NCBI GenBank assembly: GCA_052327205.1
Contig: CM126223.1
Span: 65,844,001-65,908,000, forward strand
Length of the DNA: 64,000 nucleotides
Reading direction: 5' to 3'
Source: Somniosus microcephalus
Taxonomy: Eukaryota
Below are positions 1 through 63,524 of the stretch, piece by piece. A program made the translations under genes and the position numbers. Below the pieces are notes generated by a model, which worked only from the letters and a program-made list of their open reading frames with translations, did not search any database and was not told the origin of the DNA. Positions within the stretch are counted from its first letter, which is position 1. Every line of letters starts with the position of its first letter.

Positions 1-2042
1 AGGGTGGGACCAACAAGCAAAGGGAACCTTGGATGACAAGGGAGATACAAAAATGCATTAGAAATAAAAGGGGGGCTTTTGGCAGTTACAAAAGACTAAA
101 GACGGAAGAAGCCCTAGAGGAGTATAAAAAGTGCAGGGGCATACTTAAAAAAGAAATTAGGAGGGCGAGGAGGGGCCATGAAATAACACTGGCGAGCAAA
201 ATAAAGGAAAATCCTAAGATGTTTTATAAGTATATTAAGGGCAAGAGGATAACCAGGGAAAGGGTAGGGCCCATTAGGGACCAAAGTGGCAATCTGTGTG
301 TAGAACCAGATGATGTAGGCGGGGTTTTAAATGAATTTTTTGCATCTGTGTTCACTATGGAGAAAGACGATGCAGACATAGAAATCGGGCAAGGGGACTG
401 TGACATACTTGAACATATTAGCATCGAGAGGGAGGAGGTGCTAGCGGTTTTAGCAGGCCAAAAAGTGGATAAATCCCCAGGCCCGGACGAGATGTATCCC
501 AGGCTGCTGTGGGAGGCAAAGGAGGAGATTGCAGGGGCTCTGACACAAATTTTCAGAACCTCTCTGGCCACAGGGGATGTACCAGAGGACTGGAGAACAG
601 CTAATGTAGTACCATTATACAAGAAGAGTAGCAGGGATAAACCAGGGAAGTACAGGCCAGTGAGCCTAACATCTGTGGTAGGGAAATTATTGGAAAAAAT
701 TCTGAGGGACAAAATTAGTCTCCACTTGGAGGGGCAAGGATTAATCGGGGATAGTCAGCATGGCTTTGTCAAGGGTAAATCATGTCTGACAAATCTGATT
801 GAATTTTTCGAGGGGGTGACTAGGGAGGTGGATGAGGGAAATGCTGTGGATGTGGTTTACATGGACTTCAGTAAAGCTTTTGACAAAGTCCCGCATAGGA
901 GACTGGTCAAGAAGGTAAGAGCCCATGGGATCCAGGGTGCCTTGGCGCGTTGGATCCTAAACTGGCTGAGTGGCAGGAGGCAGAGGGTGATGGTCGAAGG
1001 TTGCTTTTGTGACTGGAAGCCTGTGTCCAGTGGGGTACCTCAGGGATCGGTGCTGGGTCCCTTGTTGTTTGTGATCTACATAAATGATTTGGATGAGAAT
1101 GTAAAAGGGATGATCAGTAAGTTTGCAGATGACACGAAAATTGGTGGGGTGGTAAATTGCAAGGGGGAAAGCCTCAGGCTACAGGACGATATAGACGGGT
1201 TGGTCAGATGGGCGGAAAAGTGGCAAATGGAATTTAACCCTGAAAAGTGCGAGGTGATGCATTTTGGACGGACAAATAAGGCAAGGGAATACACAATGAG
1301 TGGTAGGACCCTAGGAAGTACAGAGGGTCAGAGGGACCTCGGTGTACATGTACATAGATCTCTGAAGGCAGCGGAACAAGTAGATAAGGTGGTTAAAAAG
1401 GCATATGGGATACTTGCCTTCATTAGCCGAGGCATAGAATATAAGAGCAGGGAGGTTATGATGGAGCTGTACAAAATGCTGGTGAGGCCACAGCTGGAGT
1501 ACTGTGTGCAGTTCTGGTCGCCTCACTATAGGAAGGATGTGATTGCTTTGGAGAGGGTGCAGAGAAGATTCACCAGGATGTTACCTGGGATGGAGCGCCT
1601 CAGCTATGAAGAAAGACTAAACAGGCTGGGGTTGTTTTCCTTGGAGCAAAGAAGGCTGAGGGGGGACCTGATTGAGGTGTACAAAATGATGAGGGGCATA
1701 GGTAGGGTAGACAAAGAGGAACTTTTCCCCTTAGTAGGGGGGTCAATAACAAGGGGGCATAGATTCAGGGTAAGGGGCAGGAGATTTAGAGGGATTTGGG
1801 GAGGAACTTTTTCACCCAGAGGGTGGTTGGAATGTGGAACTCAATGCCTAAAAGGGTGGTAGAGGCAGGAACCCTCACAACATTCAAGAAGCATTTGGAT
1901 GAGCACTTGAAATGCCATTGCATACAAGGCTATGGACCAAATGCTGGAAAATGGGATTAGACTGGACAGGGATGGATGGGCGGCGCAGACACGATGGGCC
2001 GAAGGGCCTCTTTCTGTACTGTAAAACTCTATGACTCTATGA
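1..2042 (+). mobile_element. CR1-clade LINE, ORF2 reverse transcriptase and 3' end (young copy; 5' part outside window)
   Basis: ORF 33..1862 has [26 protein letters not shown] and LEYCVQFWSP motifs. Apparent frameshift near 1790; CTCTATGA tail repeat. Confidence 0.95.
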
Positions 2043-13285: not shown

Positions 13286-14399
13286 TTTGTCTGGTCCCTG
13301 GACAGAGTAACCACAATGCTTTAGTATTTTAATAAACAAGTTATTTCACCTATTATTTTTAACTATTAAATCACACACATAGATGAAAGGGGGGGCTTTA
13401 ACATACCGAGTCTCAAGACTACTTCTACACACAAGCTATACGAAAACATTTGAGGACTTGACTGGTTTGATCTGTGCCATCTTCCCAGAATGTTGAAGTA
13501 CGGTCACTACAGCATTCATTGAACACTGCAATTTTAATCTGAATCTCTATATTTTAAGCTACCCATATTTCCAACTCATCAATATTGCATCTGTTCACCT
13601 TCCATAGAAAGGTTGTACCATCAGCTTCCTAATAAGGTAGCAACTGGATGGTGTCTGCAAGTCGGTGGCTATCTGCAGTGCCCAACTTCTTATCACGGTT
13701 AGTAAAAATAGTCTTCCTAATCAACAAAAACTGTCACAGATGGGAGCCTATCTACTGGACCAGTTAGTATCAGCATGTTCAGATGTGAGACATGAAAGGT
13801 TTTGATTGTTATCAGGTCATTTTTTTTTTTTTTTAATGTAATTTTGCACAAAAATTTATGCAGCAAAATAAATGGAGAAAAAAAACTTCAACCAACAATG
13901 TAATACATGGCTACATTTTATTTCTATTTGCGCAGACTGTTGTACAAGGTGTCAGCAGAAATACAGTTGTAGGACAGGAAGACCGGTTTTATTTGCTATA
14001 TAGTGGGAAGCAGTTTTTAATTATATAGCTAATGTGCATCATAGAATTTTTATTCTTTTCAGGGTTTCCCCAGAAACATTTCAGAGGTTGGCCTGGCGTA
14101 TGGAATGGGAACGCTCCCAAGAAACCAAAGCAGGCACAACTTTTGGTTCAAAGCAGCAGGCGACCAATTCAAAATGACTGGTGTGACCTCGCACCCAATG
14201 GTAACTGGCCAATGATTACTTCTGCATTTCAGATAAATAGCTTCATTTAGTTATGGGTAAAAAAATATGCTCCATATCAAACACGGAAAATGCTAGAATT
14301 GTACAGCATGTCCATCAGCATCTGAAACAGCCAAGTTAACTGGATTCTGATGAGGGGACATAACATATGCCTGCATAACAGGCACTGCATTTCAACATA

Positions 14400-18798: not shown

Positions 18799-19084
18799 CT
18801 GCAAAGATAATGTAATCTAAAATTAGCATAGTTTCTGTATACTATGTTGCACATTGCTTTATGCCGATATCTTCAGCAGAAAGGATTACAGAGAAGGCAT
18901 AATCAATATAAGTCCATACAACTACAGTCTGTACTCAGCTCAAGTACATTTGGAAAAAGTGAAAAAAACATTTAAACTAACAAGAATTAAACTACAGTAC
19001 TGATATCAAGTGCTCTTGCTCTTCGATAAAAAGCAATGAGTTTAACAATGGGCTGAAGCACCTTCCAAAGCACATTTTTCTCTT

Positions 19085-19216
19085 ACAAAAGCAAAATACT
19101 GCAGATGCTTGAATTCTGAAATAAAAACAGAAAACGCTGGAAATACTCAACAGGTCAGACAGCATCTGTAGAGAAAGAGTTAACATTTCAAGTCGATGGC
19201 CGCTCGACAGAACTGA
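19085..19216 (-). mobile_element. Penelope-like terminal fragment with a degenerate hammerhead core
   Basis: Homologous to 44213-44350; core reads CTGTCGA..GAAATGTT on the minus strand. Confidence 0.7.
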
Positions 19217-23184: not shown

Positions 23185-24290
23185 AAGAAGTCGCCTTTCA
23201 CAACCTCAGGATGTCCCAAAGTGCTTCACAGCCAATTAAGTACTTTTGAAGTGTAGTCACTGTTATAATGTATGGATTTTGCACACAGCAAGGCCCCACA
23301 AACAGCAGTGAGAAAAGTGACCAATTAAACAGTTTTAGTGGTATTGTTTGAGGAATAGTATTGGCCGGGACACGGGGAGAACTCCCATGCTTGGGAGGTC
23401 TCCCCGTGTCCCGGCCAATAATAGGTCTTGGAATTTGCTGCCCCAGAAAGCTGTGGAAGCTACATCATTAAATAAATTTAAAGCAGAAAGAGAGAGTTTC
23501 CTAGAAGTAAGGGGAATTAGGGGTTACAGGGAGCGGGCAGGAAATCGGACATGAGGCTAGGTTCGGAATGGTCATGGCCCTGTGGGTGGCGGAGCGAGCC
23601 CAGGGGCCGTGTAGCCTGGTTCTGCTCCTACTTCTTGTGTTCTAATTCTGTGTTAGATTTCAGGAGATGGTTCTATTCACAGGGATTAGTGGAGACCTCG
23701 GGAACAGGCTGCGAGCTAGGAGTCCTTCAAGAGTAAATTGGGCCTGTTCCTGGCTGGGGTGGAGATCACCTCTTACAGAAGGTAAGTACTGCAGGAAATA
23801 CAGGGACAGAGTGATCTCCTGGACGAGTTTCGATCGCCTAGAGGGGTCGGAGAGGAATTTCCCAGATTTTTTTCTCCCAAATTGGTCATTGGGTTTTTTA
23901 ATCTGGTTTTTCGCCTCTCCCGGGAGATCACATGGGTTTGGGTGGGATGGAGAGTGAAAGTAGATTTGAGGTTAGGATCAGATCAGCCATGATCTTATTG
24001 AATGGCGGAGCAGGCTCGAGGGGCCGATTGGCCTACTCCTGCTCCTATTTCTTATGTACTTATATGCTCTTCTTCAAATTCTGCCATGGGTGCTTTATGT
24101 TCACCCAAGAGGGACCTTTGGTTTAACATCTCATTCGAAAAGAAAGCACCTCCAACAGTGCAGTGCTCACTCAGTACTGCAGTGGAGCGTCAGCTGAAAT
24201 GATGTGCTCAAATTCTGAAGTGGGGCTTGAACCCATAACCTTCTGATTCAGAGGCAAGAGTACTAGCACTGAGCCAAGGCTGACACCTAA
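23185..24290 (-). mobile_element. Deu-domain tRNA SINE interrupted by plus-strand CR1-related 3' fragments (about 23421-24063)
   Basis: SINE breaks at ..ACTCCCATGCT and resumes at ATGCTCTTCTTC; collinear with the copy at 58715; CR1 tails inside. Confidence 0.7.
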
Positions 24291-26816: not shown

Positions 26817-26879
26817 GTTTTAATGATAGAAGCACAGATAATATACAAATTTGTACAGATAACATACAAATTTGTACAA

Positions 26880-27114
26880 TCAAAGGAAAAACCACAATTG
26901 CTGGAAATCTGAAATAACAAAAGATGTTAGAAATGAACAACAGATCAGTCTACATCTGTAAAGAGTAAACGCAGGTTATGACAATTTGGGTATGTACCTT
27001 TCATCAGAACTGATGACTTCTGATGAAAGATACACATCCAAAATGTCATAACTTGCCTTCCCACTTTATAGATGCTGTCTGACCACCTGTGCATTGCCAA
27101 CATTTCCCGGTTTT
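26880..27114. mobile_element. Old Penelope-like inverted pair with two decayed hammerhead cores
   Basis: Imperfect palindrome centred near 27014 with TCATCAG / CTGATGA cores pointing outward. Confidence 0.6.
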
Positions 27115-29724: not shown

Positions 29725-29939
29725 CCTCTGGTCCCCCAATGGAGAGCGCCTCTGGTCCCCCAATGGAGAGCGCCTCTGGTCCCCCAATGGAGAGCGCCTC
29801 TGGTCCCCCAATGGAGAGCGCCTCTGGTCCCCCAATGGAGCGCGCCTCTGGTCCCCCAATGGAGAGCGCCTCTGGTCCCCCAATGGAGAGCGCCTCTGGT
29901 CCCCCAATGGAGAGCGCCTCTGGTCCCCCAATGGAGAGC
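29725..29939. repeat. Minisatellite, about 9 x 24 bp (CCTCTGGTCCCCCAATGGAGAGCG)
   Basis: Near-perfect tandem copies with one internal variant unit. Confidence 0.97.
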
Positions 29940-30979: not shown

Positions 30980-31132
30980 CTAAACAACAAAAAAAACCAC
31001 AGTAAGGAGCTGGATTTGGAAAAGTGAAAGAAATTAGTGCCAAGTATTTGTGATAGCTCAATGAATTTCAGTTATCGTCATCGCAAGTATATACATGGCT
31101 GCATGTGACTCTTCTACATGTGCATAGCTGTG

Positions 31133-32222
31133 GATTTTGATAATCGGGGGGCAGTACTGTGCGGCGGGGGCAGGTTGGTAGAGGACCTTTGTCTTACGGA
31201 TGTTTAATGTAAGGCCCATGCTCTCGTACGCTTTGGTGAAGGTGTTGACGATGGTTTGGAGTTCGACCTCCAAGTGAGCGCAGACGCAAGCGTCGTCTGC
31301 ATACTGTAATTCAACGACAGAGGGTGGGACGACCTTGGATCTGGACTGGAGGCGACGGAGGTTGAACAGTTTCCCGTTTGTTTCGTAAATTAGCTCCACT
31401 CCAGTGGGGAGCTTACTGAGGGTGAAATGGAGCATTGCAGCCAGGAAGATCGAGAAGAGCGTTGGTGCGATGACACAGCCTTGCTTGACCCCGGTTTGTA
31501 CGTGAATTGGGTCTGTGGTGGAACCGTTGGTCAGGATCACGGCTTGCATGTCGTCGTGAAGCAGGCGGAGGATAGGGACAAACTTTTGAGGGCAGCCGAA
31601 TTTGAGGAGGACACTCCATAATCCCTCACGGTTGACAGTGTCGAAGACCTTTGTGAGATCAAAGGCGGCCATGTACAGCGGTTGGTGCTGTTCCCTGCAT
31701 TTCTCTTGTAATTGACGTGTGGTGAAGATCGTGTACATTGTGCCCCTTAGTGGGCGGAATCTGCATTGCAACTCTGGGAGGAGCTCTTCGGCCACTGGGA
31801 GAAGGCGATTTCCCGATACGAGACTCCCAAAACAAGCGCTCTACTCGGAGCTCCGGCACGACAAGAGAGCCCCAGGTGGGCAGAGGAAACGCTTCAAGGA
31901 CACCCTCAAAGCCTCCTTGAAAAAGTGTAACATCCCCACCGACACCTGGGAATCCCTAGCCCAAGGCCGCACAAAGTGGAGGAGAAGCATCCGGGAAGGT
32001 GCCAAACACGGAGTCTCTTCGCCGGGAGCAAGCGGAAGCCAAGCGCAGGCAGCGCACGTCAACCCAAACACCTCACCCACCCGCCCCTTCAACCACCGTC
32101 TGCCCCCCCCTGTGACAGAGACTGTAGGTCCCGCATTGGACTCATCAGTCACCTGCAAACTCATTTTCAATGTGGAAGCAAGTCATCCTCGGCTCCGGGC
32201 TCCGAGGGACTGCCTAAGAAGA
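31133..32222 (+). mobile_element. RTE-clade LINE with 5' inversion (RT segment on minus 31133-31810; 3' end on plus 31811-32222)
   Basis: FDLTKVFDTV, GVKQGCVIAP and QYADD on minus; RLPKQALYSEL..GGQRKRFKDTLK on plus; (AAG)n tail; ATAGCTGTG TSD. Confidence 0.9.
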
Positions 32223-34591: not shown

Positions 34592-35941
34592 GGCCTAGAA
34601 ATTCAGTTGCTTGCGCCAGCCGGTAGCGCCTTAGGAGGAGGAGATGTTGGGCGCTAGGCGGCTAGCGGCCGGAGCGCAATCTGCGCCTCTCCCCAACTTC
34701 ACTCACGATTTTGCGTCGGCGCAAAGTCTTTGCGCGCGCTCAGCTGCGCGCGCAGATCCTGACGTCATTTCCTCGTGCAACGCCCTTTGTGCGCCCCAAA
34801 CTGGAACTTCAGTGGCGCCGCCCTTCTTTGCGCCTGGCGCCCCCCAGCGACTGGTAGAGGGGAACGGTTCCCAGTCGCTGCGGGGTGCGCTATTTAAAGG
34901 GGACTCCTCCTGCATTATAAGTGACAGCCATTTTGTGCCAATCCTTCTGTGTGAGAGACAAAGGCAGAGAGCTTTCTGCTTTGACTCAGCGCTCGCACAG
35001 GCTTCAGGCCAGAGCTTTGCACTTGGATTTCACTTTCAGTGCCATAGCCTTGAGTCGCCACATATACTGTAATGGGGGCTACAATGGGTGGAAACGTTGG
35101 CTTTCTGCATTGCATTCAAAGGGATCAGAGACGCCGTGAGAGAGTGCCAGTCATGGCCAGACGGAGAAGGGCCAACAGGTGTCGGCACATGAGGCCTTAC
35201 CCACCCAGGGTATACCGCCAGCAGTTCTCATATCTGAACATGTCTGAGGAGCAGTGTGTTCGGAGGCTGCGATTCAGAAGGGAGGTGGTCACTGAGATCT
35301 GCCACCTGCTTCGCAGAGATCTGCAGCCACAGCTGAGGAGCAGGACATCTCTGTCGGTGGCAGTGAAGGTGACGGTGGCTCTCAACTTCTATGCCACCGG
35401 CTCCTTCCAATCCGCTACTGGGGACATTGCCAACATCTCCCAGTTCGCGGTACATTGCTGCATCCGACAGGTGAACAATGCCCTTTTCAGAAGGAGACGT
35501 CAGTACATCTCCTTCCCCATGACCCTGGACAAGCAGCAAGAGCGTACAATGGGATTTGGAAGAATAGCGGGCTTCACCATGGTCCAGGGCGTAGAACTGA
35601 TGAACCAGCATTGGTCAGGCCTTGCTTCAGGGCTGCAGTGCGCAGGGCATGGCAGCCAGACAAGTCCACCCTCCCCCTTTAAGAGCTGACCGGCGCCAGA
35701 GTGTCTGCCGTCAATCAGCAACTCGCCGCACCTGCACTGCGCCCGCCCTCGGGGGTATCGCCCCGGACCGCCGGCTTAGCGCCTAATGATAGTCGTGCAT
35801 CGCCTGTTTTAGCGCAGCAGCAACCTCTTGGGGCGATGCGACTGAATATCGGCGAAGGTGGCGCGAACTTGCGCCGGGCGCAAACTTTAGCGGCCGCCCG
35901 ACTGTAGCGCCCCGAACGTGGCTATACTGAATTTCTAGGCC
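34592..35941 (+). mobile_element. PIF/Harbinger deletion derivative retaining the N-terminal transposase ORF (35072 to about 35590)
   Basis: Perfect 16-bp TIR GGCCTAGAAATTCAGT, TSD ATG; HARBI1-like VALNFYATGSFQ..GD..ISQ..FP..GF..VQG. Confidence 0.92.
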
Positions 35942-38180: not shown

Positions 38181-38284
38181 CCGCATGTTTATTGCGCCGG
38201 TGATTGAGTCGGGGTGCAGCCGAGCCATTTCCTCGAGGCAGGAATAAGGCCGCGCCCTTTACAGTCAAGAAGCTCTCACTTATG
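38181..38284 (-). CDS. SSH2: SSH2 exon (ISESFLTVKGAALFLPRGNGSAAPRLNHRRNKHAG)
   Basis: 104 nt, polypyrimidine-CAG acceptor, GTAAGT donor; translation matches the Slingshot N-terminus. Confidence 0.95.
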
Positions 38285-44212: not shown

Positions 44213-44350
44213 AACAAAAGCAAAATACTGCGGATGCTGGAAATCTGAAATAAAAACAGAAAATGCTGGAAATACTCAGCAGGTCAGGCAGCATCTGTAG
44301 AGAGAGAAACAGAGTTAATGTTTCAGGTCGATGACCCTTCGTCAGAACTG
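44213..44350 (-). mobile_element. Penelope-like terminal fragment beginning at a hammerhead motif
   Basis: Near-identical to the reverse complement of 47611-47746. Confidence 0.8.
44313..44349 (-). ncRNA. Minimal type I hammerhead ribozyme motif
   Basis: AGUU-CUGACGA-A-GGGUC(AUC)GACCU-GAAA-CAUU-AACU. Confidence 0.6.
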
Positions 44351-45123: not shown

Positions 45124-46812
45124 CAATGTTCCCGCTAAGGTGTGTGCGCGCGTGGCCGTGCATTAATGTGAAAGGTCCTGCACAGGCCGCTCACCGGCTT
45201 TTATATTTTAAGAACATAAGAAATAGGAGCAGGAGTAGGCCATTCAGCCCTTCGAGCCTGCTCTGCCATTCAATGAGATCATGGCTGATCTTCTGCCTCA
45301 ATTCCATTCACCGGTCCTATCGCCATATCCCTTGATGCCCTTACTAGTCAGAAATCTATCGACTTCTGTTTTGAATATACCCAATGACCGAGCCTCCACA
45401 GCCCTCTGGGGTAGAGAATTCCAAAGATTCACCACCCTCTGTGTGAAGAAATTTCTTCTCATCTCAGTCCTGAATGGCCTACCCTTTATCCTGAGGCTGT
45501 GGCCCTTGGTCCTAGACTCCCCAGCCAAGGGAAACATTCTCCCAGCATCCATCCCATCAAGCCCTGTAATAATTGTGTATGCTTCAATGAGATCCCCTCT
45601 CATTCTTCTGAATTCAAGAGAATACAGGCCTAGTTTACTCAATCTCTTCTCATACGGCAGTCCCGCCATCCCAGGAATCAATCTCGTGAACCTTCGTTGC
45701 ACACCCTTTATGGCAAGTATATCCTTCTTTAGGTAAGGAAACCAGAATTGTACACAGTACTCCAGGTGTGGTCTCACCAAGCCCCTATATAATTGAGTAA
45801 GACTTCTTTACTCCTGTATTCAAATTCTCTTGTAATGAAGGCCAGCATACCATTTGCCCTCCTAATAGCTTGCTGCACCTGCACATTCACTTTCAGTGTC
45901 TCATGTACAAGGACACCCAGGTCCCTTTGAGCATCTGCATTCTCCAATCTTTCACCATTTAGGAAATACTCTGCCTTTGTTTTTTCTACCAAAGTAGATA
46001 ACTTCACATTTATCCACATTATATCCCATTTGTCATGTTCTCGCCCACTCACTGAGCCTGTCGAGATCCCCTTGAAGCCTCTTCACATCCTCTTAGCAAC
46101 TGACACTGCCACCTAGCTTCATGTCATCAGCAAATTTGGAAATGTTACATTTAGTCCCCTCATCCAAATCATTGATATAGATTGTGAATAGCTGGGGCCC
46201 AAGCACCGATCCTTGCGGTACCCCACTAGTCACAGCCTGCCAGCCTGAAAAAGACCCATTTATCCCTACTCTTGTTTTCTGTCTGTTAACCAATTCTCAA
46301 TCCATGCTAGTATATTACCCCCAATTCCATGTGCCCTAATTTTGTTCACCAACCTCTTGTGTGGGACCTTATCGAAGGCCTTCTGAAAATCCAAATACAC
46401 CACATCTACCGGTTCCCCTTTGTATACTCCACTAGTTACATCCTCAAAGAACTCCAATAGGTTTGTCAAACAGGATTTCCCTTTCATAAATCCATGTTGA
46501 CCCTACCCAATCTTACTATTAGTTTCTAAGTGCCCAGTTATTGCAACCTTTATAATAGATTCCAGCATTTTCCCAACTACTGACGTGAGGCTAACAGGTC
46601 TGTAGTTCCCCGTTTTCTCTCTCCCTCCTTTCTTAAATAGCAGGATTACATTTGCTATCCTCCAATCTGCAGGAACTGTTCCAGAATCTATAGAATTTTG
46701 GAAGATGACAACCAATGCGTCGTAAATACCACGCATGCGCAGAAGTTTAAAGGGCCCACACACTAAAAGAAACAGGCCGAGCAGAACAAAGCACAGCTTA
46801 CATGGAACATTG
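45124..46812. mobile_element. hAT-like MITE, itself interrupted by a CR1
   Basis: TIR CAATGTTCC / GGAACATTG; 8-bp TSD GTTATGAG / ATTACGAG (6/8). Confidence 0.75.
45210..46720 (-). mobile_element. CR1 LINE RT fragment with 3' tail
   Basis: Frameshifted ORFs with YRPVSLTSVV, DFQKAFDKV, KFADD and LEYCVQFW. Confidence 0.93.
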
Positions 46813-47355
46813 ATTACGAGTTTAAAAAAAAAAAGAAACTTGAGATTCTGGAAATATTTCCACTGGAGCAGAAAAAGCCAAGAGAAGATTTAAAAGGAGG
46901 TTTTTAAAACAATAAAAAAAGATTTTGATGGAGTGAAAAGGGAGAGACCATTTCTTCAGGTTGAGGAATCAGTGACAGGGAGCCATCAATTCAAGTAAGA
47001 GCGAGGAGAGAAGCTGGAAGAAATGTCTTTATGTAGAAAGAGCATGAAATGCTTTGCCACAGGGTGTGGTTGAGTCAGAGATCACTACGTATTTTAAGGG
47101 AAGAGTAGATAAACACTTGGAGTAGATAATGACGTAGGGCTATGGGGAGAAAGCAGGGCAGTGAGATTAGTTTTGGATTGCTCTAGCAAAGATGGGACAC
47201 AGACCAGATAGGCCAAATGGGCTCCTCCCGTGCTGTAAGCTTCTATGGTTGTACAAATCTCATGGGCAGTTTACACGTATGATTATACTGGAATCAAAAC
47301 ACAAGATGCTGGGAATACTCAGCAGGTCAGGCAGCATCTGTGGAGAGAGAAACAG

Positions 47356-47392
47356 AGTTAACGTTTCAGGTCGATGACCTTTCGTCAGAACT
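47356..47392 (-). ncRNA. Minimal type I hammerhead ribozyme motif
   Basis: AGUU-CUGACGA-A-AGGUC(AUC)GACCU-GAAA-CGUU-AACU. Confidence 0.7.
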
Positions 47393-47611
47393 GGAAAAAG
47401 TTGGAGATGGAACAGATTTTTCCGCAAGTGTAGGGGCAGGGAAAGTGGGGAGGGGAGGAAAGAACAAAAGGGAGGGTCTGTGATAGGGTGGAAGGCAGGA
47501 GAGATTAAGAGACAAAAGGGGTGATGGTGCAAGACCTTCCCTTTCGTTCTTTCCCCCCCTCTCCCCGCCCCTACACTTGCGGAAAAACCTGTTCCATCTC
47601 CAGCTTTTTCC

Positions 47612-47648
47612 AGTTCTGACGAAGGGTCATCGACCTGAAACGTTAACT
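47612..47648 (+). ncRNA. Minimal type I hammerhead ribozyme motif
   Basis: AGUU-CUGACGA-A-GGGUC(AUC)GACCU-GAAA-CGUU-AACU. Confidence 0.7.
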
Positions 47649-48208
47649 CCGTTTCTCTCTCCACAGATGCTGCCTGACCTGCTGAGTATTTCCAGCATTT
47701 TCTGTTTTTATTTCAGATTTCCAGCATCCGCAGTATTTTGCTTTTGTACGATTATACTGGACTGGAATCTAGCTTGTAATAACCAATAAAGTGGAAGAAA
47801 GAAACAAAGGCTGCTTTCATACCAACGCTTCTGTATCGATAGCAATGGTTTCAGATGTGGGACGCAAAAGTGGCAGCACAATTTGGGAGCCAGAATGGCG
47901 ATCTGACTCCCAAGGTCCAAACTAATGACAGCACAAAAGTAAACTCGCTGGATTTGCCAAGGCTGCGGACATAAAATGTTTCTACTGTTGTGGTACCGTC
48001 CTGTCTAGCAAGTTAGTTGGAAGAGGGATGCGGAGATACAGTTGGGATTTAGTGGAATATTTGTGCCATGCTTTGTGACATTGATGTTATACATGTTGGG
48101 CTGGATATTATATTTATAATGTTGAATGTTTCTTCTTCAAATGGTATCTGAACACCACCTGTTCACTTCACGGTGTTCCTACATATAGATAGGCTCTTCT
48201 TCAAACTA

Positions 48209-48477
48209 CAGGAAACTCTTTTTTTTAATCCAGCACCGACGGGACCGGCGTGGTACCGGTTGATCAAAAAGTCCGGATTACGGAGAGGTATACTTACTAA
48301 GGTACGAGAGCATGGCCACAGGTGCAGGAACCCCGGTTACACAGTCACAAATCCAGGAACCCCGGTTACACGGCCACTAATATGAAGTAAAACTTACCTG
48401 AACCTACTCCTGAATTTTGCCGGTTAAGAGAGATTTCCGGTTATTTAGGTGCCGGTAAAGAAAGAGAGAGTTTCCTG
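48209..48477. mobile_element. Tc1/mariner-type MITE, related subfamily
   Basis: TIR CAGGAAACTCT / AGAGTTTCCTG with TA flanks. Confidence 0.8.
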
Positions 48478-50171
48478 TATACAGCAACATTTTATTCTTG
48501 ATGACTGACTTGTTTAATTCTGCAATGTCTGTCAGGATACCAGCCTTAATTTAGAGCATTTAGGTTTTCAAAAGGTTTAAAAAACCCTGCTAAGTATGGA
48601 AACAACCAAAATAAGCAAAAAGGGAAGTTCATATTTCAGAAACTCAACTTTTTAAAAACAAAACACTCACAGCTTCTGATTCTCATTGTGCAAAAACCTC
48701 TTTATCCTGTGTACACGTGCCTGGTTTTTCAAGCTTTCAAACTGTTGCTAACCAGATGGTTTGGGGTTTTATTTACACTGAAGAAAAGTTACTACTCTTT
48801 GTCTTTGACCGGTTTGTTTAGCTAAAAAAAAGTGCGGTTAAAGTGAACAAAGCAAACAACTGCACTGCTCCCCAATAAAGAGAGCACATTCAGTGTTTCT
48901 GGTTAGTCTCTCTCCTTTCTCACTCTCTCTCTTTGTCTGCAATCAAGTACAAGGATTCAATTTGCTGTGCATAAAAGTTTACCTTCCCTAATTTGCAATC
49001 TCAGAATGTTATTAGTGATGAAAGTGCCCATGAACCTGCTCAATGTGAAAGCAAATTGCTTTGGTTCTGTCTCACAGCACTAATGAAAATCGCTGGTTTT
49101 AATTGTAATTAATTTACTGCTCTGTTAAGTGCACCTATTCAATCACTCGCTTTCATTTTAAAAATGTAAAGAAAAGGCCATTGTACAGCAGCTCGTCAAA
49201 GTCAATTCGGCTCTAAAGGCGACCATTATTAACAGTTTCACAATCAGGCTTTCAGGCAACAATACCACTCCAACAGTAAATGAGAGCAGCCTCTTTAATC
49301 TTATTGAAACACATCCTCATTCAGGAGCTGACATCAAGGAAACCACTGGTAAAAAATAAAAATAAATTTAAAAACACTTTCTCAGAGGGTTATTAAATTT
49401 ACAAACTAAAATTATCCACTGCTTTATAGATTGAATTAATAATTCACAACAAAGGTTTCTGGATTGAAACCAGATTAAGACCACAGAAATAGAAAAGGCA
49501 AGTCCAATATACAGATGAAAAAGAGGTTTATAAAGATTATAAAGAAAAAGAATGCCAATCAGGAAAAAGTAAATTTAGAACAGGTATTAGAAAAGCTTCT
49601 TTATCTCCGTTAATAGATTGTTTCAAAAATCTATTGGAATAAAGAGAAAACATTTGGAGTTATGCAAAATATAAATCAGATCTTATACAGTACGATTGTT
49701 AGGAGGCATGGGCTTCGATGTTCAAATGGCCTTTTTCCTTCCTTGACTTTTCTTTCATTATTTTGAGTTTATTTGGCCAAATGGCCACACAACTAGAAAA
49801 GCATTTCCAGAAGAAAAGACATTTAGTTCAATTCATTCACAATAGAACACAATAGTGCCATTTGGATATTTTTCTGCAGCAGAATAAAAGTTGCCAGTAG
49901 GTTCAGAATTAAACCCGAGCCTTTCTTCTGATTTCTGGGTCTCCCCCAACTCTATCCTTGGTACCTCTAATGGAGACTGTACTACTAAAAAGCAATACGG
50001 AAACGAGAGACAAAAATACAAGAACAGTAACTGAGGCAAGGCATGGAAAATACAAACTGCAAAGTGGATAGAAAGAACAGAAAGAAGGGCACACCAAATT
50101 TATCCAATGAACTCCGAGGTGTGGTCTGGTGTCACACAGACCAGAAAGGTCTCAGTTTTAGTCCCCACACT

Positions 50172-57210: not shown

Positions 57211-58714
57211 TTATCATTCAGTTCCAAGGAAGCTTCAACTGGTAACTTTATGTAAATTCAGTGCATCAACACTGGCTGGGTCAGTACTTCCTCCTAGCCA
57301 GTTCCCCAATTAAGTCATCAGCATGAATTGTGCAAGCAAAAATACTCCCACAAAGAAAAGCAAAAATACAGATATATTCTGTATCTGTATTATCAGATAG
57401 GGTTAATAAACCCATTTGATTAAAGTAGTGCTAATGGTTAAGAACAGACTACAATAACCTTGCAGTCTATTTTAATTATGCCTACAGCTTTTAAATGAAG
57501 TTTTTTCCCCCCTCTCAATCCTAATCTATTGCACATGGTAGTGCTTGAAATGAAACACTCGCACTCAAAAGGCAACTGGTATCCACGTGAAGTAGGTAAT
57601 ATCTATGCAGAATTTTCCCACTTGTGTGTGAGTAACACAATGGGGGACCTGTCACAATATATTCCACCACAATAGTTATGCTTCAACAGCTGGTCACGCA
57701 GACAGACCAGTTTTAGCTTCAAGTGCCGTGAAAATTCCCAAAGTTCACTTTAATAGGATTGTTTATATGCCAAAATGTTGAAGTGAAAATCAATACAAAA
57801 CTACCGCTTGCTAAACCAGACAAACTTCTTCATTATAAGCACCCTTACAAAAAAAAAGAGGAACAATGAAAAAGTAAAAACAACAGAAAATGCTGGAAAC
57901 ACTCAGCAGGTCAGGCATTTGTCTGTATATTTCTTCCTCCACCTCCCTTCCAGTATTAGGTGGTCTGTTCAATGCATGAAGTAAATGAGATTCTTAGCCA
58001 TTTTCAATGTAATTAAAATCCTTAAACACATAACTTGCATCAGCAATTTTCTCCCAAGTACATGCCCTTCTCAAATTGCCAGATACAGAACTCCAACTTC
58101 CTCTTGTATGCCAACTAGCTCCTGACTTGCATTAGTTTTAACAGTGGCCCAGTAGCAGATCAGTCACATATTGCCAAAGAAGAAAGTGATGGATTCATAA
58201 CCTCAAAAAAGTAGTTACTGTAGATAGAGCTTACTGTTTCATGGTTTTGACACAGACCAGAGCAAGTAATGAGACTCAAAGCAAAAAGAACTTGAGATTA
58301 CAGGCATACCAATTAATTTTTGCATTAATGCAAAGTAATCATCTTGTATGCATCAACAAAAGAGTAGCAGTGTAAAGACTACCAAACATACTAAAGACCA
58401 CAGGTGAGAGACTGCCTCCGGTGCAGTGTAAAACATTAGCTAAAGCCGTATTTATATTGTACCAAGATTCATGCTTATGGTGCTAGCTCCCAACATTTTT
58501 TTTAAAAAACTGAGTATTCCGGACCCAGGCCTTCATGAATCACAGCAAGTTTAATCTTGGTGGTAGCTGGCCGTGCAAGATTTGCACATCAGATGTCGGT
58601 GCCACCAATGCAGGCCTGAGCGTACGGCAAAGGCAGCTTAAATGATGCAAACTGAGACTACTAATGAGTACTGAAACAGAAGTGAGAAAGAAAAATGAAC
58701 AAGAATGAAAGAAA

Positions 58715-59110
58715 ATTTGCCTTTATATAGCGCCTTTCACGACCTCAGGACATTCTCAAAGCACTTTATAGCCAATGAGGTACTTTTTGAAGTGTGGTCA
58801 CTGTTGTCATACAGGCAACCAACCAACACTGCTATCAATTTGCACACAGCAAGATCCCAGTAAGAGCAATAAGATAATGACCAGATAATTTGTTTAATGA
58901 TGTTGACTGAGGGATAAATATTGGCCAGGGCATCAGGGATAACTCCCATGCCAAAAGATGGCACCTCCAACGGTAAAGCAGCCCCTCAATACTACACTGA
59001 AGTGTCAGCCTAGATTACACGCTGAAGACTCCATGAACTCATGACCTTCTGACTTGGAGATTGCCTCCGAGTCAGAAGGTCATGGGTTCATGGAGACTGC
59101 AGAGCCAAGT
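58715..59110 (-). mobile_element. Deu-domain SINE with a fold-back at its head
   Basis: Collinear with the SINE pieces at 23185-24290. Confidence 0.75.
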
Positions 59111-63350: not shown

Positions 63351-63524
63351 GCTCTAATGGCACAATTGGTAAAAAGTGTATAAATGGCCTGGTGTGGTAC
63401 AGAATAACAGACCAGGAATGTCCACGGTTCAATCCTGATGGAAATACACAGCAGCTCCGGCAGCACTTGTGGAGAAACAGATATCGGTCAGTCGACATTT
63501 CAGGTCTTGAGACCCTTCTTTAAG

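Follow-up and report, generated by a model that had tools for sequence, protein, structure and literature searches.

Two hammerhead ribozymes, predicted to be silent, in a head-to-head insertion of an abundant and probably Penelope-like repeat of Somniosus microcephalus

Two intact minimal hammerhead ribozymes, one on each strand, lie in an inverted unit of 453 bp (47293-47745) within a 64,000-nucleotide stretch of the Somniosus microcephalus genome, here called the window, whose positions are used throughout. The question raised by the locus is whether these ribozymes act on the gene around them or are remnants of the repeat that carried them in. The evidence points to the second answer: the unit probably consists of two truncated 3' ends of a very abundant, likely Penelope-like repeat, joined head to head within a target duplication, likely in one event, with both hammerheads predicted to be silent. 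Hammerhead pairs on opposite strands of Penelope-like elements have been known since 2014, and the unit is most likely an ordinary, inert insertion of the kind already described. The locus itself matters little, since it is a single insertion scar among the very many that this abundant repeat has left. Its modest value is mechanistic: its junction can be read, only one arm has a tail, and both arms share a rare variant, features that speak for priming from the two target strands and against a simple fold-back. It also counsels caution, as an 'intact ribozyme in an intron' of a shark genome will usually be repeat debris.

The two 37-nt hammerheads are of minimal type I and differ at one base. 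The left one (47356..47392, minus strand) has its predicted cut between 47360 and 47359, and the right one (47612..47648, plus strand) between 47644 and 47645. Both follow the layout AGUU-CUGACGA-A-stem II-GAAAC-GUU/AACU (the slash marking the cut), with the loop AUC closing a stem II of AGGUC/GACCU in the left motif and GGGUC/GACCU in the right. In each, the core CUGANGA and GAAA surround the paired stem II, stem I is AGUU/AACU, the NUH triplet is GUU, and a palindromic C-G pair at 15.2-16.2 stands without a loop 3. An extra A sits between positions 9 and 10.1, and the 10.1-11.1 pair, the first of stem II, is A-U (left) or G-U (right), not G-C; a sister subfamily, visible as a loose end at 47656, has G-C there. 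The AACGUU named in the original prediction as replacing stem III does contain a palindrome, but the palindrome proper is the 4-nt ACGU, the outer letters being core A14 and the cleavage-site U17. Cleavage at GUU is slower than at GUC. GUU is among the cleavable triplets listed in PMC3138052.

A descriptor that asks for both stems I and II, the core, complementarity at 15.2-16.2 and an NUH triplet matched the window at exactly two sites, the two arm motifs, as against none in 100 Markov-simulated 64-kb sequences. The expectation of an inverted repeat with one intact minimal hammerhead per strand is borne out by these sites and by the agreement of the arms at 172 of 185 bases. The Rfam check proposed for the hammerheads came back empty, the window having no match that reaches the gathering score and none of its 34 matches at E<=10 belonging to a hammerhead family. 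MicroRNA matches in Rfam were discarded, merely reflecting the long hairpin. Two pattern scans of metagenome contigs gave no match to the hammerhead motif, and one match each in the viral and prokaryote genome collections was judged from its flanks to be chance. Across seven window copies, 85.7% of the stem cells are paired and 3 of 11 pairs show two-sided change, a result that did not exceed shuffles (75/500 and 119/500). The consensus of the sister subfamily (679 RNA reads at the loose end) has a different yet paired stem II and a GUC triplet. None of the five other aligned window copies passes the descriptor, whereas both arm motifs do. If 33 bases are constrained and each arm has changed by 2-4%, both motifs would be intact by chance alone with a rough probability of 0.07-0.26; weak selection, or conversion between the arms, may lie behind their preservation.

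The arms pair over 163 nt (47288-47450 with 47554-47716, 93%) and again over 33 nt (47447-47479 with 47532-47564, 88%) at a spacing of 52 nt; a global alignment has, beside the 172 matches, a single 7-nt indel and 13 substitutions. The two halves are not symmetric. The paired part of the left arm (47293..47479, minus strand) is the 3' end of the repeat without its tail, ending at the position that corresponds to a pile-up of family 3' ends at 47712-47713. The hairpin loop of 52 nt (47480..47531, minus strand) is present in a single copy. Family reads cover it up to 47533, where they pass on into more of the family's sequence (1434 RNA reads), so that the loop belongs to the left arm as its upstream continuation, and the head-to-head junction is a 2-nt microhomology, AG, at 47532..47533, between the loose end at 47533 and the start of the arm alignment at 47532. 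The right arm (47532..47712, plus strand), likewise the 3' end of the repeat, has a 5' end 54 nt shorter than that of the left arm and alone bears a tail of 33 nt (47713..47745), which reaches a second family pile-up and for which the left arm has no counterpart. The tail overlaps an imperfect internal repeat with a spacing of 29 nt (47688-47709 and 47717-47738). A stop-free frame of 150 codons (minus strand, 47260-47712) crosses the junction; it has no Pfam match and is likely a chance product of pyrimidine-rich sequence.

The unit is flanked by target-site duplication copies at 47277..47292 and 47746..47761, and no third site within one mismatch of the 16-mer occurs in the window. The predicted 16-bp target duplication is therefore present at both ends, but its copies are identical at 15 of 16 positions, and it may originally have been 19 bp, followed by a 5-bp duplication on the right (read by eye). 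The left boundary of the unit is uncertain by about 5 nt because the end of the target looks like the element. In a more distant organism, one contig whose flanks differ by about 2-6% enters the left arm for 27 nt at this place, below the 31-nt bridging rule, and suggests that the insertion is old and retained.

Three DNA runs from three organisms and one RNA run were placed on a 3-kb stretch (46700-49700). It drew 125,288, 120,293 and 137,847 contigs in the three organisms, other repeats included, and summed depth, which is not copy number, exceeded 3.6 million on the bins from hammerhead to tail against roughly 2-20 in the unique flanks. The 3' ends of family members accumulate, in each of the three DNA runs, at 47712-47713 (547, 533 and 552 contigs) and at 47745-47748 (up to 894, 822 and 895 contigs), counts taken from the best-supported rows. 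The two sites lie about 33-36 nt apart, the left arm ending at the first and the right arm at the second, and beyond both follow unrelated AT-rich flanks (agreement 0.36-0.40). At the other end, family depth drops several-fold upstream of the hammerhead stem I start, and four copies have their 5' ends within about 3 nt of it (window 44350, 19215, 27012 and ~27017). The site resembles an initiator (consensus YYANWYY). If transcription starts there, the 135-nt copies could be run-off cDNAs comparable to a strong-stop product. A splice origin of this 5' boundary was rejected, as three copies retain the CAG yet share nothing upstream. Family 5' ends cluster a second time at 47664-47665. A 22-nt motif occurs in the repeat in three imperfect copies (47596-47617, 47688-47709 and 47717-47738), one ahead of the 5' boundary at the hammerhead and one ahead of each of the two family 3'-end sites.

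Membership among Penelope-like elements is likely, judging from the terminal anatomy together with the ribozyme. Several features of these elements are present: an optional tail of 30-40 bp with two 3'-end sites, in each of the three DNA runs; copies truncated at the 5' end and joined at variable junctions to an inverted neighbour; and a target-site duplication with AT-rich targets, the latter read from the flank consensus. The Penelope-like origin originally proposed is thus supported by the two 3'-end sites, the one-sided tail, the inverted truncated copy and the target duplication. A search with one 45-residue reading frame of the repeat as query linked it to no RT or GIY-YIG protein; none of six candidates scored, and none of the 15 phmmer matches carried either domain.

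The layout is familiar from published systems. According to Arkhipova et al. 2013 (PMC3846280), a typical Penelope insertion has an inverted pLTR, an optional one-sided tail of 31 bp and a target duplication of 9-10 bp; Craig et al. 2021 (PMC8557442) describe the same layout and name the origin of the inverted copies and of the one-sided tail as open. Endonuclease-bearing Penelope insertions (PMC3846280, PMC8557442, PMC2377424) share with the unit the head-to-head inverted pLTR, a tail on one arm (33 nt here) and a duplication around the whole. The duplication is 8-10 bp in the rotifer examples, as opposed to 16-19 bp in the unit, whose junction is a microhomology with a 52-nt loop in place of a palindrome, and both arms of the unit are short and without an ORF, unlike the insertions described by Schostak et al. 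2008 (PMC2377424) and others. Dual minimal hammerheads, 100-700 bp apart on opposite strands, were reported by Cervera and De la Pena 2014 (PMC4209133), who also describe a truncated element with a second, opposite-strand motif at its 5' end. Their minimal hammerheads from Penelope pLTRs resemble the present motifs in the U-rich lead-in, short stem I, CUGANGA with an extra base, stem II, GAAA, palindromic C-G and NUH, and rows of their Fig. S3 include, as here, GUU as the triplet and a first stem II pair of G-U or A-U. The consensus first stem II pair is G-C, from which the unit departs, and no ORF is attached in the unit. Supplement file 2 of that paper has no mention of shark or Callorhinchus milii.

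Another close system is Poseidon of the green anole, studied in vitro (PMC11167929). Frangieh et al. 2024 tie an optional tail of 30-40 bp to two RT start sites, and the Poseidon protein, a predicted dimer, nicks and extends both strands in vitro. Alike are the two 3'-end sites bounding a tail, the AT-rich flanks, the hammerhead just upstream and the lack of an RNA-end pile-up at the cut; different are the start sites, which in Poseidon lie in an AC-rich stem-loop of the ORF, whereas both ends here follow copies of a 10-nt motif repeated in pyrimidine-rich sequence. The likeness assigns the unit to neither clade, Poseidon or Neptune. Animal non-LTR retrozymes (Li et al. 2026, bioRxiv 10.64898/2026.07.22.740005) are also non-coding, derived from pLTRs and equipped with type I hammerheads, and one sampled species is a cartilaginous fish. 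Retrozymes are head-to-tail tandems whose same-strand ribozymes are able to pair, whereas the unit is inverted, and no head-to-tail tandem with at least two same-strand hammerheads was found at it. The literature search on hammerheads, Penelope and sharks together brought up no title on shark elements. In PMC6155905, the word 'shark' stands only for the shape of the ribozyme.

The window holds further members of the family. The fragment at 44214-44350 (minus strand) has 3 differences from the right arm in 135 nt, and window alignment found single fragments at 19081-19215, 57876-57917, 63436-63518 and 14279-14324 (minus strand). All five have the minus-strand orientation of the Slingshot gene discussed below, and none passes the descriptor, a number too small to interpret. 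An older inverted pair of a related subfamily (26899-27103) has 86-nt arms, 77% complementary and 8 nt apart, with a tail on one arm only and both hammerheads decayed; a 21-nt tandem duplication (26834-26878) adjoins it.

How was the inverted pair made? The two-base variant at 47422..47423 (minus strand) is common to both arms, occurring in the right arm at 47581-47582. Other letters at these sites account for 98.0-99.9% of the contig depth per DNA run and 90-97% of the RNA reads, frequencies in which depth weighting favours consensus-like contigs and some differences go uncounted. As so rare a variant stands on both arms, one event most likely made both. The variant points to one source RNA or locus; conversion between the arms after insertion explains it equally well. 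A pathway consistent with the anatomy starts with the element endonuclease, which would nick both target strands about 16-19 nt apart. Each nick would then prime reverse transcription, with element RNA of a single source as template: the left arm, without a tail, would begin at the inner start site and the right arm, with the tail, at the outer one. Both cDNAs would stop after about 210-240 nt and anneal at two bases, and the gaps would be filled. We give such double priming from both nicked strands about an even chance. The older pair at 27 kb has two 5' ends that are nearly level and hence lends no support to the longer tail-less arm that would be expected. Should double priming prove general across the genome, a step in the life cycle of the retroelements most closely related to telomerase would be settled, and the very many shark pairs would allow this step to be tested from genomes alone.

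A more specific version is tentative and, on balance, doubtful. Here one protein dimer on one RNA would make Penelope inverted pairs, and the motif copies at 47688-47697 and 47717-47726 would set two RT starts, one per nicked strand. Such a rule, if true, would explain the one-sided tail, the target duplication, the shared variant and insertions born silenced in both ribozyme and splice acceptor. It was not found in the Penelope literature searched, and the formation of inverted pairs is not treated in the parts of PMC11167929 consulted. A different route to the same element and the same silence is self-priming or fold-back of the inverted arm, for example on an antisense template, with endonuclease resolution leaving the one-sided tail. 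Fold-back accounts directly for the shared rare variant and is the published proposal for head-to-head junctions (Arkhipova et al. 2013, PMC3846280), the tail being ascribed to endonuclease resolution by Craig et al. (PMC8557442). However, the first cDNA would have to carry the loop, which makes it the tail-less left arm, so it cannot template the tail of the right arm, and the junction is a 2-nt microhomology with a 52-nt loop and not a palindrome. Fold-back is therefore unlikely, and priming from both target strands remains the preferred reading.

The host gene encodes a Slingshot phosphatase on the minus strand. Four minus-strand ORFs match the Slingshot PH-like domain (PF23040), the phosphatase domain (PF00782) stays below cut-off, and one exon is identical at 45 of 47 residues to PDB 2NT2 (SSH2), with SSH1 and SSH3 lying outside the comparison. 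The nearest predicted Slingshot coding exon, an internal one from a splice-site scan (38181..38284, minus strand), lies 9 kb from the unit, downstream as the gene is transcribed. Its ORF has no Pfam match and carries a Slingshot-type motif; the exons with domain and structure matches are downstream ones. The same scan found no upstream Slingshot exon in 38.3-64 kb. The unit is probably intronic in this gene.

The original prediction held that transcription in either direction yields one ribozyme together with its antisense, and this follows from the head-to-head arms. It further expected antisense-first silencing on the minus strand; folding supports this and extends it to both directions, the antisense arm being transcribed first in each. 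What finds no support is the idea that the motif in the SSH2 pre-mRNA would be masked only once the downstream arm is made: with the antisense arm first, the hammerhead fold is predicted to cost +33 to +63 kcal/mol over the best fold throughout, at 14 transcript lengths (7 per strand) from completion of stem II onward, and the probability of stem II is at most 1e-11 at all of them. Folding was treated as an equilibrium at each length, with no kinetics and no proteins, and in this model masking by the hairpin leaves no unmasked window. The predicted silence of both motifs is due to the antisense arm being made first; in an arm alone the hammerhead fold costs +3 to +7 kcal/mol.

Even in the isolated left motif, the core is predicted to mispair with the cleavage strand, and for two copies ViennaRNA gives a free fold of -22.9 kcal/mol against -9.7 and -8.5 kcal/mol for the active swapped dimer, tertiary terms not included. 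The notion of the two ribozymes as a functional pair finds no support, as they lie on opposite strands and never share one transcript; no intact same-strand partner for either exists in the 64-kb window, and the same-strand copy nearest to the left motif (44.3 kb) has a broken stem III. A paper by Lunse et al. is said, by its title, to show minimal hammerheads cleaving as dimers. The 'efficient' dimeric cleavage once assumed is at odds with PMC4209133 and the review PMC6765202, in which minimal hammerheads do not act as monomers and act weakly as dimers (low activity even for dimers and trimers in PMC4209133), and with PMC11167929, in which the ribozyme of the anole element did not cut without its protein. 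In Li et al. 2026, 1 of 9 frog retrozyme dimers cleaved. Very likely the ribozymes do nothing at this locus.

In an RNA run from a closely matching organism, of which about 24% was read, 16 of 30 bins, the unique flanks, have zero depth, so all element RNA reads stem from other copies. Three read-end pile-ups were listed, at 47310, 47447 and 47558, and none at the predicted cut, which fragmented libraries may hide. An antisense bias of the RNA reads was dropped, library strandedness being unverified and the skew varying from row to row. A T-to-C excess in the arms was likewise dropped as an editing footprint, as both letters exist in the family and reads go to the better-matching arm.

Even with inert ribozymes, the 190-bp hairpin could act on the host gene as dsRNA, through editing, small RNAs or a hidden splice acceptor. 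The whole unit is predicted to fold at about -338 kcal/mol (z about -30), and Penelope copies yield small RNAs in a rotifer according to PMC3846280. The hairpin also buries an acceptor-like site, a pyrimidine tract with CAG/ATG at 47652..47669 (plus strand), whose mirror copy at 47335-47352 lies on the host sense strand; its unpaired probability is 0.000 in the unit and 0.41 in the arm alone. The translated repeat frame matches 15 proteins; of ten that were looked up, two have names, being gene models of Heterodontus francisci and Scyliorhinus torazame, and these two shark models probably use the same acceptor-like site. A peptide starting at the repeat ATG occurs in both models. Here, the repeat CAG/ATG with a donor-like site in the flank would give a 63-nt in-frame pseudo-exon (47275-47337, minus strand). 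However, any inverted repeat should form a strong hairpin and the family has many such pairs, so that an effect of the dsRNA on the Slingshot gene is quite improbable.

It is very improbable that the 453-bp unit is a non-autonomous fold-back element copied whole. A single target duplication flanks it, and another junction, from about 47372 to 47665, is found repeatedly in all three DNA runs (at most about 20 contigs in each), perhaps because some inverted pairs are spread as units or because the place is a hotspot. Against whole-unit copying, family reads leave the reference at 47533 for further family sequence, and the window holds no second copy of the unit's junction. Among the best 15 joints (1825 further joints and 3402 further loose ends exist), 12 link left to right arm, each with a distinct coordinate pair, a count that excludes reads spanning the unit's own junction. 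With variable junctions elsewhere, the unit is probably the family's usual insertion scar.

Regulation of the Slingshot gene through conditional self-cleavage of its pre-mRNA is scarcely credible: both motifs are intact, the distant-organism contig suggests an old, retained insertion and amniotes have domesticated intronic hammerheads (PMC6155905), but with the antisense arm made first the hammerhead fold is predicted to cost 33-63 kcal/mol, there is neither a stem III nor an intact same-strand partner in the window, the left motif in isolation is predicted to mispair its core, and the minimal hammerheads of PMC4209133 are inactive as monomers.

Other repeats share the window. RT ORFs (PF00078) of other retroelements occur at 3-1859 (plus strand, 619 codons) and 31058-31840 (minus strand, 260 codons), presumably of CR1/L2 type, and the former is similar in DNA to 45392-46667, beside the unit. 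Self-inverted hairpins at 23356-23423 (68 nt) and 59022-59102 (81 nt) are unrelated to the hammerhead family. An ORF of 211 codons at 35054-35689 (plus strand) has no Pfam match at E<=0.01 and resembles a Harbinger-type transposase. A 24-nt unit is repeated in nine nearly identical copies at 29725-29939.
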